From: a virus
Lineage: Duplodnaviria > Caudoviricetes
IMG/VR virus record: IMGVR_UViG_3300037781_000042
Location: 64,001 to 128,000 of that record
Length of the DNA: 64,000 nucleotides
Strand: one strand, 5' to 3'
Shown: positions 7,005 to 17,400 of the stretch, in pieces
Position numbering within the stretch: the stretch's first letter is position 1
How the letters are laid out: each line of letters begins with the position of its first letter
The notes under the pieces: model-generated
What the model saw: only the letters and a program-made list of their open reading frames with translations
What the model was told of the DNA's origin: nothing
Database searches by the model: none
Position numbers and translations under genes: made by a program

Positions 7005-10000
7005 ATGCAAAAGAATTTATATTTCACATCACCAAATCAGCCTCACTTCATAGAAATTAATAATAATTTTTCTGAAAAGAAAGAGTATAGAATTTATTTT
7101 GAAGGAGAGACTTTAAATTTATTTTTATTAGAAGGAGTATCTATAACTAATTATGATACTTTTGATAATGGATATGTGTTAACAGTAGATGAAGGAGAAT
7201 CTAGGTACTTAGAAATTTATCCAAAATGTGGAGATGTTTCTATTGATGCTTATGTAGATTGTATAATAGAATCTGCAGATCAAGATTTTACAGATATTAA
7301 TAGATTGAATTTAGCTTTAAGAAAAGAGAGATTTGGAAAGAATGTTCCTTTATATTCTACATTTGAAAAGAAATTTAAAGAATTTGAAAAAGAAGAATAT
7401 GAAACTTATGCTTTACAAAATATAAATCCTTTACTTTCTGGAAATGTTAAATTAAGAATAGATTCTAAAAATAAATTATATTTTACTTTATTTGATGAAG
7501 TAACAGAATCTAATAACGATAAATTATATTCAAGAGTAGTAAAAAACGGATCTGATTATTTAAATGAACTAACAAAATTCTTTAAAGATTTAGAAAGAAA
7601 GACTGATAGTTTTTATGAAAATATAGTAGTTGAAAATTACAATTCAAGAGACGGAGCATCTTTAAAATCTCAAATTAGAGATGATATTTATTCTGCAGGT
7701 GCATATAATATTCCTTCAGAAACTCATAAAGAAAAATTTGCAATTTTTGCTCCTTTATATCTTGAAAATAAAATACCTTCTAAGTTTGTAATTTTTAAAA
7801 GAGAAAAAGTAAATGATTTAAAAAATTCTGAATTATTTAAAGATTTAACAATTGTAAAAAGTTTTGATTTATCTAAAAATTCAGAGTTAGGAAAGTTTAT
7901 AGATAGAACAAAAGAAACTATAAATTTTGAAAAACCTCACGTAAAAAGTGTAATTAATGATAACTCTGTTCTTTTAGAAATAACAGGAATGGATCCAGAA
8001 GCTTCTTCAATTGCTACAGTATATGAAGATATAACTGATTATGCTTTTAAAGAATCTACTATTTTAGATTTTGAATCTTATGTTACTGATACTTATAAAA
8101 GAAGAAAACTTGTTTCTCATAGAATATTAAATTTAGAATTTTTATTTGATGATGATTTAGAAGAAAACGAAATGTATTCGTATTTTGGAATGTATGTAGA
8201 TGATTTAGACATCTCTAAATACGAATTAGATTTAAATCATTATGGAAAAGATGTTTATAATAAATGTACTTTAGGAATTGGAAGTTCTGTAGATTCATTA
8301 AAAGTTTCTACTCAAATACCAGATATTTCAAAGTATATTAATACTAATGACAGAATATTCTATTTAAAAGATGCTTCAAACAATTTTCATAATTTAAAAT
8401 CTACTTCTGAATATGAATTTAAATTAAAAAATTCTACAAGCATTTGTGACTTTGCTAAAAATGTAGATGAACAGGTTGTTATTAAAGATTCAGATATTAT
8501 TAAAGATGCTAAACCTTATGTAAACGTTTCGTTTGATGATAACATTTATTCAAATACACAGTTAGTAATAACTCAAAATACGAATAAATATGAAATAGAT
8601 TTTATAGAAGATGTAGTAACAGTAGATTATTATGAACATTCTCAAATAGAAAATATTTTTCCTATTACTTTAATAGATGATAATACTATTCAAATAGAAG
8701 AATATGTTTATATTCCTGATTCTGAAATAGTAACTTTAATAGATCCAAGTTCTGAAATTTCAGTAGAATCTTCTTATTCTATTAATAGTGGAAGTTATAC
8801 ACAAATTGTATTTTCAGATGCTATCGATTTAAGTTCAATTACACACATTAAAATAATAGAAAAACCTAAACTGAAAGCAGAAGTTACTTTAGGTGTTAAT
8901 TTAGAAGAAACATTAGCTAAATTAGTAGAAAAAGTTTCTTTATTAGATAATTTTCCATTTGAAATAGTTCAAGAAGCAAATGAAATTTTTATATGTTCTA
9001 CTAATAGTTTAAAGTTTAATGTTACTTTAGATACTACTAATTCTTCTACTGATTTATCTAAGATAAAAAGATTCAGTAATGATTTAACGTTAACCGCTTC
9101 TACTGTAGGAGGAGTAACAGTAACTTCTAATGTATCATCTTTTAATTCTGTAAATCTAACAAATGATTATCTTTATCCTATAGATAGTTATTACTCAGAA
9201 TATTTTAATGAAGGAGATTATTTATATGACATTGGTTCAGTTCATTCAGAATCTTTACCAATTGATGAAACTTCTTATACGATAAGATATATGAATGGGT
9301 TAGAAGTAATAAAACTTCCTAAAGAAAAAACTATTAAAAAGATTTATAAACCAAGTTCTTTATGTTTAGGACTTTTTAGTTTTTATGATGTTAGAAGATT
9401 TGATACTCAAATGGTAACAAATGATTTTAATTTCATTAAAGCTGAATATCAGAAACTTTATAAGAAATTTGCTCCTTCTGAAAAATTAGTTCCTAGAATG
9501 ATTTATAAATTGAAAAATGTAGGGAGTATTCCTATTACGGTTTCAGTTAGATATGGAATAGAAGATTCTTGGAAACATACAGAAGTAACTAGATTAACTG
9601 TAGGAGCAAATTCTACTAGACAGTTTTCTACCTTTCTTTCGGATTATAGTTTAACCGAATATAATGAAGATATTGAGTTTAGATATTTTTTAGTAGATGA
9701 TAATGAATTAAGTGGAAACATCTATGCTTATAATTTAAATCTATTTGAAGATCCTGATTTATTAAACTTTGATCCTGAATTTCCAAATACTTCTTATGAT
9801 AGTAAAAAGAAACAAAACGAAATAGATATTCAAAAACAAAATGAAAATCCTGATTTCGTTTACTATCAAGATGCTAGAAGTGAATATTTTAGATTAGAAG
9901 AATATTCAAACGTAGATTCTACAATAGAAGATATTATATCAAATAGAAATGTAAAATGGACAGATTATAAATTCAAAGATTCTAAAGCTCAACCTCATAG

Positions 10001-12758
10001 ATTAAACTTTAGTCCTGCTTTAGGAAAAACCGGATACATGTCTACATTTACAAATTTTGAAAGTTTACCAGAACTTCATCCTCATGAATGGTTTATGATG
10101 GAAGAATTTCCAAGTCACTTATCAGTTTACGAAGGATCAGAAGGAAATTATTTATTTTCAAGAGTTTCTAAGAGTTTACTTTTAGATACTAACTATGACT
10201 ATTTTACAGAATATTTTTCAAATGGTCATTTAGGAGTAGATGAAATAAGTGGAAAAGATTTAAAAATTTCTAGAAAAGATAATTATGGAATTTTTTATAG
10301 ATCTTCTTTAGATGAATATGAAGTTCCTTATAAAGGGGTAAAATATAGATTTAAGTCTGAAACTGATTTAAGTGGATATAAATTTGCAATTGTTCATAGT
10401 ACACGTCCTGATTTAGAATCTAATACACAATCTATAATTGATCATTGTGAGGTACCGGATGTTGGATATGATTGTAAAGATTTAGGAATTTTACCTAAAT
10501 TACAGTATGCAATTGATGATTTAGTATTAGGAGATCAAACTGTAAATATTTCAGTTTCTGTTATAAATTCTGGAACTTCTGTTACTATTCCAGAATTAAC
10601 AAGTACTACAGTAGAAAATTCTGGTTCTTTATTTACTTTAGGACAATTTGGTACTGAATTATTAAATGCTTTAAATAAATGGAAAGCAGCATTTGAAAAT
10701 ATTTATAATACTTCAAATGGATACGGAGGAAACTTAACTATTGCATTTAGTACAAAAACTGAAAATGGAAATTATCCTGTAGGAGAATTTTATATTACAG
10801 ACGATCAGAAAACTACAAGTAAAATAGGAGACATTAGAATTGGAATGGCTAAAATTCCAGATACGGATGTTGCTAAAACTTTATACATTTCTCAATCTGA
10901 TTTTAATTCAAAATTTGATTATGTTACTCCTTCAATAATCATTAATTCAAATGCTATTTTAAGAAAAAATGATGACGTTGCCCCTGAGGCATTTTCATTA
11001 TCTTATATTATGGCACACGAATTGGGACATGCTTTTGGTTTAGGTCACGTAGACAGAGAAGCTTCTTTAATGAAACCTACAATTCAATTTAGTTATGATT
11101 TAGGAAACATAGAAAATGAAGATGATTGTATTATAAGTATTTATGGAGAACCTTTACCTGTAGAAGATAATAGTGTTGATTTCGATTGTTCTTTAAGTAG
11201 ATTTAGAAAGAAAGATTCTTTTGAATTTATAGTAAATGAAACATTTAAAACAATAACACTTAAAATCTGTGTAGACGTTCCTAATTATATCAATTTAGAT
11301 TCTAAAAAATCTTTTGTAGATATGTATGTTTCTAATTCATTAAAAAGAATAGCTTCTTATGACGGTGTTCATACTTTAGAAGGATTAGATTTAAGTATTC
11401 CAATTATAGATCTTTCTATAAAAAATGTTGTTTTAGAAAATGATAATGTTTATGCTTTTGCTAAACAGCATTTAGATTTATTTACAAATGGAGAAAATTC
11501 AGAATATTCTTCTTATAGAATAAGAGATGTTAAAAATAATGAAAATGATTTTACAATAGACTATTTAGCACTTACATATACAAATGTTAATTATACATTA
11601 AAGAAATCTTTTGATAAAACAGGTTCTGTAAATAAAGCATTATTGACTAGAATTAAAGATGGATACGATAGTTCTTTAAATATGAAAATACCTTTATTGA
11701 CTAAAGAGTATTTTGAAGATTCTTATTTTTATAGAATATTAGGAGGAGATTCTATATCTAAAGCAAACTATAAATTAACTTTAGATTATTTAAGTGCAAT
11801 AAGTGAAGAAATTCCAATTGAAGGTTCTGATATAACTTTTGATTTTGATATTCTTCCACTTAAAAACGTAAGACTTGAAAATATTAAAATACCAGTATTA
11901 AAGAATAAAGAAGATGGACCGCATTTTAAATTAGAAGAAGCACAAGTAAATACTTCATTACTTAGAGCAGAAGGTGAATACGATCCGATGACAGATAAAT
12001 TAACTTATTTTTCTTTAAGAGAAGATTATAATTTATCTACATTATTTCAAATAGATTTTTATAAATTGAATACTAAGTTTTTATGGAACCATTTAAACTT
12101 TGCTAAGCATGAAGAGTTAATTAAAAAGATGGGACCTTCTGATCAATTGAAACAAAATATAAAAGAAAATGAATTTTCAATGTATCAAAAAACTCAGAAG
12201 TTTGCAAATAACTTAAAAACTTTATATTCTTCTGTTTTAGATCAAGATTCATATTCTTATTATTCAAATACAAATGAACAAAAGCTTTCGGGATTCTTTG
12301 ATCCATTATTAAATAGAAACTATTTTAATTCTCAACTTATTAATAGTTCTACAGAAATTGATTTAAATATTCTAAGTAAACACGTAACGTTTAATCAAGT
12401 TAAAGAACAATTAACAGTAAACGTAAACGTTAAAGAAGCGTTAAGAGATGAATTACTTTCTTTAATACTTCCTTATTATGAAAGGATATATCCTCTTTCA
12501 ATAGAAGCAAAAATAGAAGATAGTTTAAAAAGATTAATTTTTAATGACTTAGAGAATCTTTATTCAGTCGATAGTATTAACATATTAAGTAAAGATTCTA
12601 TAGAAACTACTTATGTTAATATTTTTGAAAATGATATGATAAGAGATTCTAATTTTAACGTTGAAGATACAAGTAAGGAAATTATTGAATTAAAAAGACC
12701 TTTAGAAAAAGGAAGAAAACTTAAATTTAATATTAAAATTAGTTTTAAGTATATTTAA
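7005..12758 (+). CDS. Large putative virion/baseplate-associated protein with internal metzincin (zinc metalloprotease) domain
   Basis: 1917 aa; first gene of block with fibre and baseplate genes; HELGHAFGLGH at 11016-11048 followed by Met-turn SLMKP. Confidence 0.6.
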   Translation: MQKNLYFTSPNQPHFIEINNNFSEKKEYRIYFEGETLNLFLLEGVSITNYDTFDNGYVLTVDEGESRYLEIYPKCGDVSIDAYVDCIIESADQDFTDINRLNLALRKERFGKNVPLYSTFEKKFKEFEKEEYETYALQNINPLLSGNVKLRIDSKNKLYFTLFDEVTESNNDKLYSRVVKNGSDYLNELTKFFKDLERKTDSFYENIVVENYNSRDGASLKSQIRDDIYSAGAYNIPSETHKEKFAIFAPLYLENKIPSKFVIFKREKVNDLKNSELFKDLTIVKSFDLSKNSELGKFIDRTKETINFEKPHVKSVINDNSVLLEITGMDPEASSIATVYEDITDYAFKESTILDFESYVTDTYKRRKLVSHRILNLEFLFDDDLEENEMYSYFGMYVDDLDISKYELDLNHYGKDVYNKCTLGIGSSVDSLKVSTQIPDISKYINTNDRIFYLKDASNNFHNLKSTSEYEFKLKNSTSICDFAKNVDEQVVIKDSDIIKDAKPYVNVSFDDNIYSNTQLVITQNTNKYEIDFIEDVVTVDYYEHSQIENIFPITLIDDNTIQIEEYVYIPDSEIVTLIDPSSEISVESSYSINSGSYTQIVFSDAIDLSSITHIKIIEKPKLKAEVTLGVNLEETLAKLVEKVSLLDNFPFEIVQEANEIFICSTNSLKFNVTLDTTNSSTDLSKIKRFSNDLTLTASTVGGVTVTSNVSSFNSVNLTNDYLYPIDSYYSEYFNEGDYLYDIGSVHSESLPIDETSYTIRYMNGLEVIKLPKEKTIKKIYKPSSLCLGLFSFYDVRRFDTQMVTNDFNFIKAEYQKLYKKFAPSEKLVPRMIYKLKNVGSIPITVSVRYGIEDSWKHTEVTRLTVGANSTRQFSTFLSDYSLTEYNEDIEFRYFLVDDNELSGNIYAYNLNLFEDPDLLNFDPEFPNTSYDSKKKQNEIDIQKQNENPDFVYYQDARSEYFRLEEYSNVDSTIEDIISNRNVKWTDYKFKDSKAQPHRLNFSPALGKTGYMSTFTNFESLPELHPHEWFMMEEFPSHLSVYEGSEGNYLFSRVSKSLLLDTNYDYFTEYFSNGHLGVDEISGKDLKISRKDNYGIFYRSSLDEYEVPYKGVKYRFKSETDLSGYKFAIVHSTRPDLESNTQSIIDHCEVPDVGYDCKDLGILPKLQYAIDDLVLGDQTVNISVSVINSGTSVTIPELTSTTVENSGSLFTLGQFGTELLNALNKWKAAFENIYNTSNGYGGNLTIAFSTKTENGNYPVGEFYITDDQKTTSKIGDIRIGMAKIPDTDVAKTLYISQSDFNSKFDYVTPSIIINSNAILRKNDDVAPEAFSLSYIMAHELGHAFGLGHVDREASLMKPTIQFSYDLGNIENEDDCIISIYGEPLPVEDNSVDFDCSLSRFRKKDSFEFIVNETFKTITLKICVDVPNYINLDSKKSFVDMYVSNSLKRIASYDGVHTLEGLDLSIPIIDLSIKNVVLENDNVYAFAKQHLDLFTNGENSEYSSYRIRDVKNNENDFTIDYLALTYTNVNYTLKKSFDKTGSVNKALLTRIKDGYDSSLNMKIPLLTKEYFEDSYFYRILGGDSISKANYKLTLDYLSAISEEIPIEGSDITFDFDILPLKNVRLENIKIPVLKNKEDGPHFKLEEAQVNTSLLRAEGEYDPMTDKLTYFSLREDYNLSTLFQIDFYKLNTKFLWNHLNFAKHEELIKKMGPSDQLKQNIKENEFSMYQKTQKFANNLKTLYSSVLDQDSYSYYSNTNEQKLSGFFDPLLNRNYFNSQLINSSTEIDLNILSKHVTFNQVKEQLTVNVNVKEALRDELLSLILPYYERIYPLSIEAKIEDSLKRLIFNDLENLYSVDSINILSKDSIETTYVNIFENDMIRDSNFNVEDTSKEIIELKRPLEKGRKLKFNIKISFKYI
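12511..12758 (+). repeat. Direct repeat copy A (3' end of 1917-aa gene)
   Basis: 248 bp homologous to 14158-14402; two near-identical blocks around a diverged ~45-bp core. Confidence 0.95.
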
Positions 12759-12900
12759 TAAATTTACACTTTCATTAATAGATACTCCGTTTTCAGAAAC
12801 AAGGGTATTTTCAAAAAGTTGTTCTAATTTAATTTGTAATTTTGTCATCTTTTTAATCGTTTTTTATAAACTATATATTTCTGCAAAATATATATAGAGT

Positions 12901-14124
12901 ATGAAGCAGAATAAAGCATATAAATTAAGGATATATCCAAACAAAGAACAAAAAGTTTTACTTGATAAGACTTTTGGTTGCGTGAGGTTTGTTTACAATA
13001 ATGCTTTAGCCTATAAAGAAGAACTTTATGCACATTCTAAACAAAGGTACACTAAGTATGATTCAATAAATGATTTAACTAAAATCAAGAAAATTGAAGA
13101 ATACTCTTGGTTAAAGGAAGTTGATTCAGTTGCTCTTCAGCAGTCACTTATAGATATGGATAGAGCATACCAGAATTTCTTTAAAAATAAAAGAGGATTT
13201 CCAAAATTTAAATCTAAACATGGAAAAAATATTTATAGAACCAATAATATTAGAGGAGCAATTCATACTAAAGGTTCTAAGATAAAGTTACCTAAATTAG
13301 GTTACATTAAATTCAGGGACCCTAGAACCATTGAGGGAAAGATTAAATATGTAACGGTATCTAGGACTCCAACTGGAAAGTATTTTGCTTCAGTTTTGGT
13401 TGAATATGATTTTACGTCTCAGCCAAAAAATAAAATAAACATCTCAAATATTTTTGCTGCCGACATGTCTTGTAAAGACATGATGGTGAGTGAAGAAATG
13501 GAATTTGAAAACCAAAAATTCTATAGAAAAGTACAAAATAAACTAAAAAGGAAACAAAGAAATCTAGCAAGGAAAAAGAAAGGTTCAAACAACAGAAACA
13601 AAGCAAAATTGAAGATTGCAAGATTACATGAAAAGATAAAGAATCAGAGGAAAGAATATCAAAGAAACCTTGCTAACATGTTAGTTTCTAAATTTGATGT
13701 CTTTGTATTTGAAGATTTAAACGTTGAAGGAATAAAGAAATTTAATTCCGGTATTTCTAAAACAATTGCTTCTGATTTTAGTTGGTCAAAATTCCTTTCT
13801 TTTCTTGAATGGAAATGTTTTAAAGAAAACAAGCATTTTATAAAAATAGATAGATTTTTCCCTTCAAGCAAGTTATGTAACGAATGCGGAACTATTAAAG
13901 AAGATTTGTCTTTAAAGGATAGAACGTATACATGTGATTGCGGACACACAATTAATAGAGACATTAATGCTGCTCGTAATATAAAGCGAGAAGGCGTTGG
14001 TGAACTAGTAAAACAAGGAATAAACCTTGTATATAAAAATTCTACTGTCGGCTGGACAGAAAGTTACGCTTGTGGAGATATGACTGAGGTTACAAGGTCA
14101 GCCCAAGAAGTTTCTTATAGTTAA
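12901..14124 (+). CDS. tnpB: RNA-guided endonuclease TnpB (IS200/IS605 family, no TnpA nearby)
   Basis: N-terminal KAYKLRIYPNKEQ...FGCVRFVYN; RuvC acidic residues in FAADMS, VFEDLNV and RDINAARNI; zinc finger CNECG...CDCG. Confidence 0.95.
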   Translation: MKQNKAYKLRIYPNKEQKVLLDKTFGCVRFVYNNALAYKEELYAHSKQRYTKYDSINDLTKIKKIEEYSWLKEVDSVALQQSLIDMDRAYQNFFKNKRGFPKFKSKHGKNIYRTNNIRGAIHTKGSKIKLPKLGYIKFRDPRTIEGKIKYVTVSRTPTGKYFASVLVEYDFTSQPKNKINISNIFAADMSCKDMMVSEEMEFENQKFYRKVQNKLKRKQRNLARKKKGSNNRNKAKLKIARLHEKIKNQRKEYQRNLANMLVSKFDVFVFEDLNVEGIKKFNSGISKTIASDFSWSKFLSFLEWKCFKENKHFIKIDRFFPSSKLCNECGTIKEDLSLKDRTYTCDCGHTINRDINAARNIKREGVGELVKQGINLVYKNSTVGWTESYACGDMTEVTRSAQEVSYS

Positions 14125-14144
14125 AATAAGAAATACAGTATAAC
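14041..14144 (+). ncRNA. TnpB omegaRNA/reRNA scaffold 3' part and IS right end
   Basis: ACTGTCGG..ACAGAAAGTTACGCTTGTGGAGA..TGAC..GTCA..CAAGAAG, hairpin TTTCTTAT-AGTTAAA-ATAAGAAA, ending AGTATAAC; typical tnpB 3' overlap architecture. Confidence 0.7.
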
Positions 14145-14402
14145 TTAGATGATGTGGAAATAGAAGATAGTTTAAAAAGATTAATTTTCAATGACTTAGA
14201 GAAGCTTTATTCAATTGATAGCATTAACATATTAAGTAAAGATTCTACATCAACAGAGTACACTGAAAGTGATTTAGACTTAATTATAGACTCTAATTTT
14301 AACGTTGAAGATACAAGCAAAGAAATTATTGAATTAAAAAGACCTTTAGAAAAAGGAAGAAAACTTAAATTTAATATTAAAATTAGTTTTAAGTACATTT
14401 AA
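14145..14402 (+). pseudogene. Displaced 3' fragment (copy B) of the 1917-aa gene
   Basis: In-frame LDDVEIEDSLKRLIFNDLEKLYSID...KFNIKISFKYI*, allelic to the C-terminus of 7005..12758. Confidence 0.85.
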
Positions 14403-14418
14403 AAAATAAGAAATAAAA

Positions 14419-17400
14419 ATGGCATTAAATTTAAACGAAATAAAAGTAACCGAATCTACTCAAGTATTGGTAGATAAGTTAAATGAAAATTTTCAATTAA
14501 TAGCAAATTCTAATGGAGGACCTGAAGGAAAATCAGGAAATCCTGGAGGTGCTGGATTACCAGGTCCTAGAGGCCCTGTAGGTTTAACAGGTCCGACGGG
14601 TCAAAGAGGATCTAAATGGTGGAACATAGCAAATACTGCTTTACTTCCAAATGCAGCAATTGTAGGAGACTATGCTGTAATATCTACTAACGGAGATTTT
14701 TATGAGCTTAAAAATGATGGGTGGATAAAGCAAGGAACTTTTAATTTTTCTCAAGGATTAACATTTGATTTAGAAGACATAAGTTATACTTCAGCAGATG
14801 GAGAAGCAGAAACAAGTTTAAAAACTTTAATTAATGCTAAGACAAATAATACTTTATTACTTACAAATATAGATAAACCTGATTCTTCATTAGGACTTCA
14901 AATTCCTACACACGATAGTCCAGGAGATTCGTATCCTTTTATTCAAGGAAGTGATTCTCTTTATAAAGATTTATATGACTATAAATTAAAAATTTACAAC
15001 TCAGGTAATTCAGAAGATGATACTACCCAAATGTATGGTCGTCATATTCATTTAGGAAATTCTTTTGCAATGACTCAAAAATCTGGATGGTTAACAAATT
15101 CAGGATTTACTATAGGAGTTGATTTACATATAGATGACATAAATGATACAGGAGAAGGAAGAGAAATTTTATCTATTGAAGGTAGAACATCAGGAAATCC
15201 AGAGCATTTACATAGACTTCAAATTGAAAATGCTGATTTTTGGGTAAATACTTTTAGAATAGGAAAGAACGGAACTACTTCTGTAGGTTTTGCAGATGAT
15301 TATACACCAACACAAAAATTAGAAATAAACGGTGGAATTAGAATAGGAGATACTTCTATTGAAACAGACGGTTCTATTCGATTTAAAGATGGAGAATTTC
15401 AAGGTTTTGATGGAACAGAATGGGTAGATCTTTCAATTACTGCACAAGAAGTAGTTGATTTAATTAAAACAAATCAAGCATCATTTAATGATAAAGTAAT
15501 AGATACTTCAGGAGATGGAGGAGTTATATTTGGCGACATGTCTTCTGTTGGAACATTAAAAGCAGGAGCTGTTAGATATAATTCAGGCACAGGAGATTTT
15601 GAAGGTTACAATGGAACTTCTTGGGTTGTTTTAAATAATAAAGTAAGTTTAGGAAGTACTGGTGGTCCAGGAGAACCTGGTGGTCCAGGCGGAACAGGAA
15701 ATTTTGTAGACGAAAACGGAGATCCAATAAATTCTAAGATTGCTGTAAATACTAATGATCCTTTAAATGCAGGAAATCCTATTTATGAAGGATTAGTATT
15801 AACATCAGAAGACGGATCAGTTACTTTAAATCAAAGTGTATTAGAATCTAAATATTCAGTAGTTGATTTATCATCTAATGGAATATTTGGTGCAGTAGAT
15901 TCAGAAGGAAATCCTATTTCAGTAAAAGGATTTGATATTAATTCAGATGACATTCAAGTAGATAAAAACATTTCTGATGGAAAAATAAACTATCAACTTA
16001 AATTATCTGATTCATCTAAATTTAAAGATGCTGTAAATGGTGCATTTGATCTTAGATCTTCTGATGGAACTGTTATTGCAAATCCACCTTCAGATGAAAA
16101 AACATATTGGGATTTAAAAGTTTCCCCTGGAGCAGGCTTACAAGAAACTCAACCTGCAGCAGCTAGATATACTGGTGATACTGCTACTCCCGATTTAGAA
16201 TATTCAGCTGCTTATGGTGGACATTATTCTTATCTTTCATTTGAAACAAAAGATTTTGATGCAAATTGTAATATTACTTCTAAAGATCCTTTAACTATAG
16301 AAGTAGAAAAAGGACAAAATGGATATTATAGCGTTTCAGCGAGAGTAAGATTTACTATTGATACTTATCCTGGCGGAACTTTGGCATCGGTAAAACTTTG
16401 TGTATTTAAAGATAATGAAGTTATCTCTGTTTTAAATTCTGTAACGACTGGAGATTCTTATGACATTACACATAATAATTCTAAAGAATACGAATTACAA
16501 GGAACCGATTTAGTTGATTTTGCTTGTGATACGCAAGATTGTTCAAACAGTTTTAAAATTGGTGTTGTAGTTGATTTTGGAACTTCTTCTGGGACAGGAA
16601 GCCTTTCAATGGGAGATTCTTCGGTAGCTATTCATAGAATAACATCAGTTACTCAAGATTCTGTAGATGCTTATTTGTTATCATCTAATACAGCATTTAC
16701 TGAAGTTACTTTACATGACGTTTCAAATGTAGAAACAGCAAATCTAGTATCTGTTGTAAATGATGGACATTTAAAACTTGCGTTACCTCAATACATTACG
16801 TATGAAATTTTAGATGATACTTATTTAAAGATAGATGCAAATATAACAGCTTTACAAGCAGCACTAGATCCTAATTCTACAATTTTAACAAATTCTTATT
16901 CTACTATTAGAGTAGATACTTCATTTACTCATAATTCTGATAATGATAGTGAATTAGAATTTATTTCTGGAGATAATGTTAGTTTAAGTTTAACTGATAA
17001 TCAATTAACTATAAACTCTACGGCTCCTAAACCTACAGTACAAAGCGATGGAGCAAATGTTGCTTCTACTTACGACAATATAGATTTTAGTTCAGAATTT
17101 TCAGTTACTGAAGCAGGTGGTAAAGTTTCTGTTTCAATGAATACGAGTAATTCTGGAGGAAAACATAATGTTATTCATTTAAGTACAAATTATTATGGAT
17201 ATTTAAGTACTATTCAATCAGGAACAAATGAAGATATTCAAGCAGGTATTTTAAACTATAATACGTTTTCAAATGCTGCGGCTGCTGGAATTAGATATAG
17301 ATCAGTAGGAGAAGAAATTTTAGATTCTGATTTAGGCGCAATTTCTCATGGAGATTTAACTGGTGGTATTGTATTAGTACCAGAAGAAACTGCTAAATAT

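Follow-up and report, generated by a model that had tools for sequence, protein, structure and literature searches.

The 64,000-nt stretch analysed here (the window) comprises bases 64001-128000 of a 211,581-bp viral record from IMG/VR, 82% complete, which corresponds to a jumbo phage (~212 kb) from pond metagenomes. It contains a tnpB gene and an omegaRNA scaffold of the IS200/IS605 insertion sequence (IS) type, located inside a virion-type gene whose 3' end is present twice. The genes follow each other in the order: a 1917-aa open reading frame (ORF; 7005-12758), a 142-nt spacer, tnpB (12901-14124), a short tail, a gene-end fragment and a collagen-like fibre gene. The 1917-aa ORF is the virion-type gene and includes an M10 metzincin domain (Pfam Peptidase_M10). 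Its last 89 codons, from 12492, are an imported end, here called copy A, and the fragment located beyond tnpB is the displaced native end, called copy B. Two alleles of the virion gene are represented by the proteins P0123 (1915 aa) and P0132 (1913 aa). Features of the window are on the plus strand unless stated otherwise.

The extent of the insert is given by a natural empty allele. Logan contigs of four runs were aligned to positions 10500-16000. A 16,124-bp contig from one run (X15, an aquatic metagenome, 2025) matches 10500-12488 with 50 differences and then 14139-16000 with 57 differences; it skips 1650 nt, and the three letters TAT fit both sides. This contig was recovered as L056 through the protein cluster of the virion gene. 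L056 is ~97% identical to the phage of the window, originates from a different metagenome and joins window positions 12488-12491 straight to 14139-14142. Its junction, ...GGATATAT|AATCTAGATGATGTGG, is in frame (YYERIY-NLDDVE); with the translation extended to YYERIY-NLDDVEIEDS, the sequence is ...GAAAGGATATAT followed by AATCTAGATGATGTGGAAATAGAAG. The L056 gene ends with sequence of the copy-B type, including copy B's version of a second divergent patch described below. The insert that is absent from the empty allele measures 1650 bp and occupies 12492-14141, with a 3-nt register ambiguity (12489-14138 up to 12492-14141). The same site therefore exists in two states among close relatives, filled here and empty in L056, and the precise 1650-bp insert behind TATAT is the only local difference between the two phages: the gene body to the left of the junction is ~2.5% divergent from the empty allele, like the rest of the genome. 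A possible co-conversion tract to the left of the junction (5 differences in 12410-12452, against the ~2.5% background) was too weak to be used.

The natural empty allele places the right boundary at 14138-14141. Relatives of this TnpB (50-56% identical, from viral and metagenome contigs) that share one right end lose similarity exactly 8 nt past their subterminal hairpin (TAGTTCAA, then unrelated flanks) in 7 independent contexts, which favours an element end at 14141 and makes 14141|14142 the most likely boundary. The first-pass annotation, made from the letters of the window, had drawn this boundary at 14144; the correction amounts to 3 nt and falls inside the ~12 nt of uncertainty that it had allowed on the upstream side. 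Its interpretation of TAAC as what remains of a decayed TCAC cleavage site has to be abandoned: AAC encodes an Asn of the gene (the codon is AAT in both the empty allele and the outgroup introduced below), and the element itself ends in GTAT. Similarly, the in-frame EIQ that it had considered as a possible part of the gene is right-end sequence.

Insertion occurred 3' of a TAM-like motif (transposon-associated motif) without target-site duplication: TATAT precedes the target, and the comparison of empty and filled alleles leaves only the 3-nt TAT ambiguity. The 250-bp repeat present at the locus is an imported allele and not a target duplication. The motif TATAT (12487-12491) ends the left flank, is kept before copy A and lies directly 5' of the target in the empty allele, where the first-pass annotation had expected a TAM. 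In the relatives, TTTAT is found before the left end in 4 independent contexts. The outgroup, a phage 58% identical to this one (L064) and uninterrupted at the insertion site, has TTTAT at the codons that match TATAT. An exact right end and a TAM-like motif abutting the insertion point on its 5' side are both hallmarks of a canonical insertion, and they point to ordinary TnpA-mediated insertion as the first event. In IS608, the 4 nt located 5' of the hairpin reportedly pair with the cleavage site (AAAG with TTAC and GAAT with TCAA), a rule attributed to Barabas and colleagues in 2008. It fits the relatives at both ends (AAAA at the left hairpin with TTAT, GAAT at the right hairpin with TCAA). 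It does not hold at this locus, where GAAG predicts TCAC and the right end reads GTAT. Such an end is consistent with a right end freed from transposase constraint.

The tnpB gene encodes a protein of 407 aa with the Pfam domains HTH_OrfB, OrfB_IS605 and Cas12f-like TNB (zinc-ribbon). It matches the ISDra2 TnpB structures in the PDB (E 7e-72, residues 2-372), has the same length as ISDra2 TnpB and retains both the RuvC residues D188, E271 and D354 and the zinc-finger cysteines (CxxC/CxC). From these features the protein looks functional. The predicted omegaRNA scaffold (13992-14141) overlaps the tnpB 3' end. Its conserved core starts at ~14017 and it ends in a hairpin (14111-14133) followed by the 8-nt tail TACAGTAT. 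The hairpin, TTTCTTAT-AGTTAAA-ATAAGAAA, is preceded by GAAG (14107-14110) and followed by TACAGTATAAC (14134-14144), as the first-pass annotation had described, and positions 14145-14164 are, as it also noted, in frame with the gene fragment. The TnpB relatives have a hairpin in the corresponding position, after the conserved motif CAGCCCAAGAA, with stems CCAGCTCC/GGGGCTGG, CCACTTCC/GGGAGTGG or CCAACTC/GAGTTGG. Because its position and its pairing are kept while the stem letters change, this hairpin is more than a chance structure. The omegaRNA core upstream of it shows nucleotide-level conservation, and compensatory changes affect 10 of the 20 predicted pairs (15 sequences). Single-sequence folds of the spacer and of the scaffold were no better than shuffles, so that the scaffold structure rests on comparison. 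A scan of 12700-14500 with Rfam gave no family above chance, and no intron was detected.

The 211-kb record includes one tnpB and one omegaRNA (a single nhmmer match), and another copy of this right end was not found in viral contigs. No close TnpB relative was identified in species genomes, where the best match (52%) is in a Tangfeifania metagenome-assembled genome. In one run from the same pond (X1), a 704-nt contig with a depth of 4.4x aligns with window positions 13127-13830 with 121 differences from this tnpB (~83% identity). It probably encodes the protein P0002, a second related tnpB in the community; P0002 (an 83% identical TnpB) was not traced to DNA and was not matched in the metagenome scan. 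On a 1.9-kb metagenome contig (L055), two copies of the omegaRNA 3' core and hairpin (40-90 and 980-1030) are separated by 940 nt. The second, which no tnpB precedes, may be a solo right end, a guide unit or a miniature derivative.

The insert is composed, in order, of the in-frame copy A, the 142-nt spacer, the intact tnpB and the omegaRNA scaffold. In the relatives, which are complete IS605-type elements, tnpA lies directly upstream and abuts tnpB; it is absent from this copy, and PF01797 (Y1 HUH transposase) was not found in the 211-kb record at its 82% completeness. The left end of the relatives is a hairpin, CCACGTCC-TTCA-GGGCGTGG, following TTTAT. At this locus, what follows the TAM is coding sequence with homology to the gene; a hairpin resembling that of the right end was not found in 12492-12900. 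The first 19 nt of copy A, which may be a left-end remnant, show no similarity to the left ends of the relatives and no hairpin. One of the relatives (L013:3900-4000) carries a truncated tnpA in which similarity to other elements begins only in the last ~100 nt of the gene; loss of the left part therefore occurs elsewhere among these elements too. The start of tnpB is preceded, at a distance of 6 nt, by a 30-nt module (12865-12894, TATAAACTATATATTTCTGCAAAATATATA). It is a perfect repeat of G000:C1:39533-39562, located between a minus-strand gene and a long fibre-like gene, and the two copies are the only ones in the 211-kb genome. This module is probably a phage promoter, captured by or placed before tnpB, and is predicted to drive it.

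The predicted guide is the 16-nt sequence AACTTAGATGATGTGG (14142-14157, extending to 14161 if 20 nt long), that is, the first 16 nt of the displaced native end. Its only perfect match in the 211-kb genome is at 14142-14157, and no other close match exceeds the control level. Genome-wide matches to a 12-nt seed (at most 2 mismatches) were common in this AT-rich genome and uninformative. The match between guide and copy B follows from the way any IS200/IS605 insertion is built, the guide being the sequence beside the right end; it is copy A that is not trivial. Copy B is preceded by the right-end tail (..AGTAT) and not by the left flank.

Copy B (14142-14402) consists of 87 codons and a stop (14400-14402). 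It has neither a frameshift nor an internal stop, and 13 of its 261 nt are different in the empty allele. It is a fragment with no proper start; copy A completes the 1917-aa ORF, and the empty allele uses an end of the copy-B type. The copies share two blocks of 92-94% identity, within 12511-12763 for copy A and 14158-14407 for copy B, with homology stopping 5 nt past the stop codon of copy A. The blocks are separated by a patch (12603-12645 in A, 14250-14289 in B) about as divergent as the guide site. The guide site itself corresponds in copy A to a putatively guide-resistant patch of 19 nt (12492-12510) facing 16 nt in copy B, the difference being a 3-nt insertion. Behind a retained TATAT, copy A shows 11 mismatches to the guide within the first 12 positions and 13 within the first 16. 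The first-pass annotation had compared 12498-12517 with 14145-14164 and counted 8 mismatches in the first 13 nt; this count is reproduced (positions 2, 4, 5, 6, 9, 11, 12 and 13), and near-identity of the copies begins, as it had noted, only beyond the patch (12511/14158). Its central proposal, a guide that is the displaced native gene end and a resident full-length gene heavily mismatched to it, holds with the revised boundary, and the mismatches lie behind the same TAM-like motif. In a study of the Dra2 and Ymu1 TnpB proteins, cleavage by Dra2 TnpB needs a heteroduplex of ~12-16 bp and mismatches at positions 1-4 abolish unwinding by Ymu1 TnpB (PMC12803034). Copy A should therefore be immune.

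As the copies diverge strongly in two patches, position alone is no proof of selection, and the outgroup serves to resolve the two. In the target region, NL(D/N)D(V/I)(E/P) is common to copy B, the empty allele (E) and the outgroup, and copy A reads PLSIEAK with an extra codon. Seven of the 15 copy-A-specific substitutions fall in the 18 ungapped target columns out of 261 aligned (hypergeometric P about 1e-5), in addition to the 3-nt insertion, while none of the B/E-specific substitutions is in the target and 12 are elsewhere. The target mismatch patch is shown by this comparison to be a derived, copy-A-specific change, as self-cleavage avoidance would predict. The second patch, on the other hand, has changed in both lineages and in the outgroup and looks like ordinary hypervariability. 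The earlier proposal that divergence is concentrated where self-cleavage must be avoided is thus retained for the copy-A-derived changes, which cluster in the target, and not for divergence as a whole, since the second patch also diverges, in both lineages.

The same comparison bears on the origin of copy A. Copy A retains 12 ancestral states that are lost in B and E and therefore comes from a lineage outside the B/E clade; since the gene body to the left of the junction is near E, copy A represents an allele imported into a backbone of the B/E type. The outgroup being also uninterrupted, the uninterrupted B-type state is ancestral. No phage of the copy-A type was found in the viral-contig scans and protein searches. 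Two viral-contig scans returned no further alleles of the virion gene, and beyond the phage's own cluster two protein searches with this gene matched only a single 58% outgroup and the ORF of copy B.

Among TnpB elements, this locus represents an unusual variant with well-defined limits. The reading that we favour, with somewhat better than even confidence on the strength of the comparisons above, is that of a solo tnpB-omegaRNA cassette derived from IS200/IS605, a homing unit made harmless by a guide-resistant spare gene end; we infer its activity from sequence. A TnpA-mediated insertion 3' of the TAM would have come first, and the left end and tnpA would later have been replaced by copy A and the spacer. 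A transcript running out of the scaffold would take the first ~16 nt of copy B as guide. TnpB would then cut TATAT followed by AACTTAGATGATGTGG, which is the uninterrupted allele of related phages lacking the insert; such alleles would be cut behind TATAT or TTTAT. In a mixed infection the break could be repaired from the cassette genome, with the gene body as left arm and copy B as right arm, so that the whole module would be copied in the manner of homing or of a gene drive. The carrier would be safe, as copy B has no TAM (the right-end GTAT precedes it) and copy A has the TAM but a replaced target. The spare end would make insertion into a probably essential virion gene harmless, the phage keeping a working gene.

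Several observations weigh against this reading. The TAM of this TnpB is predicted from relatives ~53% identical. The right-end GTAT is one base from the TAM-like ATAT, and discrimination at copy B is assumed. The window of the clustering test was set by the TAM and the guide length, yet it was picked after the patch had been seen. A duplicated gene end was present in none of the 11 relatives with enough flank, leaving a single locus, and the viral-contig scans and protein searches revealed no second phage lineage with the module. The cassette is present in all the pond runs with the phage, with no polymorphism seen within the population, and no RNA run is among those that hold the locus. Moreover, the sole empty allele found, that of L056, mismatches the guide at positions 3 and 4 and nowhere else: L056:5573-5576 reads AAT CTA where window positions 14142-14147 read AAC TTA. 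The two differences are synonymous; with AAT TTA of the outgroup as reference, one has arisen in each lineage. These seed changes could reflect escape or drift; the empty allele may itself be resistant, and the alleles found thus include no demonstrably sensitive target.

Part of these observations would also be explained by a one-off rescue without ongoing homing, in which a damaging IS605 insertion was repaired with a foreign gene end, tnpB being now a passenger, active or not, and the patch a by-product of the junction or of the history of the foreign allele rather than of guide avoidance. In its favour, none of the relatives examined shares the layout, tnpA and the left end are lost, the cassette is fixed in every pond run with the phage, and the only empty allele has two seed mismatches. 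We nevertheless regard this explanation as unlikely: tnpB and the omegaRNA scaffold show no decay, a phage promoter-like module stands directly before tnpB, and the changes specific to copy A are concentrated in precisely the 16-21 nt that follow the TAM. It also overlaps with the homing cassette that we favour, since a rescue in the presence of an active tnpB would still need a copy A that does not match the guide.

Two other explanations appear less probable still. TnpB could act as a weapon rather than as a drive, cutting the virion gene of competing related phages during co-infection, with copying of the module being incidental. Its target is in a conserved stretch of the virion gene, NL(D/N)D(V/I) being common to the 58% identical outgroup, the putative promoter module is of a late type, and interference competition, as reported for the intron endonuclease of PhiPA3, has precedents (PMC11620839; review PMC13565253). 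Such a function alone would leave the retention of the displaced end beside the scaffold unaccounted for. It could operate together with homing and is not an exclusive alternative; we judge it improbable. The least probable explanation, to which we attach very little weight, is natural hypervariability: both patches would be ordinary variable loops of the virion protein C-terminus near which the IS landed, or the "empty" contig would be a secondary deletion. The second patch is indeed variable in all three lineages, and the 15-18% divergence of the fibre gene between both phages at 16000-17000 indicates that mosaic variation is common in this region. However, B/E and the 58% outgroup are conserved in the first patch, where copy A alone has changed, and the uninterrupted outgroup makes the uninterrupted B-type state ancestral. 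As for a secondary deletion, recombination between the copies would fall inside their homology and not 20 nt upstream of it at a 3-nt overlap.

Some features of the neighbourhood deserve mention. Compared with L056, the collagen-like fibre gene is 15-18% divergent over ~1 kb (16000-17000), and divergence is 2-3% elsewhere; this stretch is probably a host-range region swapped by recombination. In the outgroup, an extra 86-aa gene without assigned function (L064:7083-7343) lies between the virion gene and the fibre gene, indicating that the slot between these two genes is variable among relatives. It was considered as a displaced gene end and rejected, its sequence being unrelated. On the minus strand of the window, a 48-aa ORF (12702-12848) is antisense to the copy-A end and the spacer. 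It is called as a gene in other assemblies, belongs to no known family and is probably spurious.

TnpB, from which Cas12 descends, is regarded as a homing nuclease by which IS200/IS605 elements are maintained in bacterial chromosomes. Little work has addressed how TnpB elements live in lytic phages, where most genes are important and a transposase is lacking. This locus provides a concrete and testable case, with a filled allele, an empty allele, an outgroup and a defined guide and TAM, as well as an internal control in the form of a resident gene copy that must escape cutting. If active, it would represent a second way, besides IStrons, for in-gene TnpB elements to be harmless, a transposase-free spread of TnpB between viruses by homing, and a natural recoding of a target that escapes its own guide. 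It is conceivable, though we hold it with distinctly less than even confidence, that TnpB elements can colonise essential phage genes by means of a recoded, guide-resistant spare end, as a DNA-level counterpart of IStrons, and that the resulting cassette spreads as a transposase-free, RNA-guided gene drive between phage lineages and also cuts the virion genes of competitors in co-infection.

Work by Karvelis (2021) and Meers (2023) reportedly dealt with RNA-guided "restorative homing" in the IS200/IS605 family. RNA-guided restorative homing has been described for the TnpB-omegaRNA elements of this family, which include ISDra2, IS608 and IS605 (PMC10055086; reviewed in PMC13565253). The cassette resembles them in its TnpB, which has the length and motifs of that of ISDra2, in a scaffold that overlaps the tnpB 3' end and ends in a subterminal hairpin, in a guide formed by the flank beside the right end, and in insertion 3' of an AT-rich TAM without target duplication. 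It differs in having neither tnpA nor a left end and in being present in a single copy, so that peel-and-paste transposition from the locus is impossible. Moreover, its left half consists of part of a gene of the host phage itself, derived from another allele lineage, followed by a promoter-like module. In IStrons, which combine IS605 or IS607 with a group I intron (PMC10690162), in-gene damage is likewise neutralised and the guide kept. However, IStrons splice the transcript, whereas the repair here would take place at the DNA level through a spare end that no longer matches the guide.

Gene-restoring integration is also known from e14 and phage 21 in the icd gene of E. coli and from elements in tRNA 3' ends. 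As with e14 and phage 21, the gene receives a diverged 3' end from the insert, immediately beyond which its native end persists as a fragment. Those elements use an integrase and attachment (att) sites, whereas no recombinase is present here and the displaced end would double as a nuclease guide. The free-standing homing endonucleases Seg and Mob of T-even phages undergo intronless homing with co-conversion. The arrangement is similar in that a nuclease gene lies beside a putatively cleavage-resistant allele of a conserved phage gene, with sensitive alleles in related phages and spread by break repair in mixed infections being expected. It is distinct in that recognition would depend on a guide RNA and a TAM instead of on the protein, and in that the cassette is located inside a gene whose end it duplicates rather than between genes.

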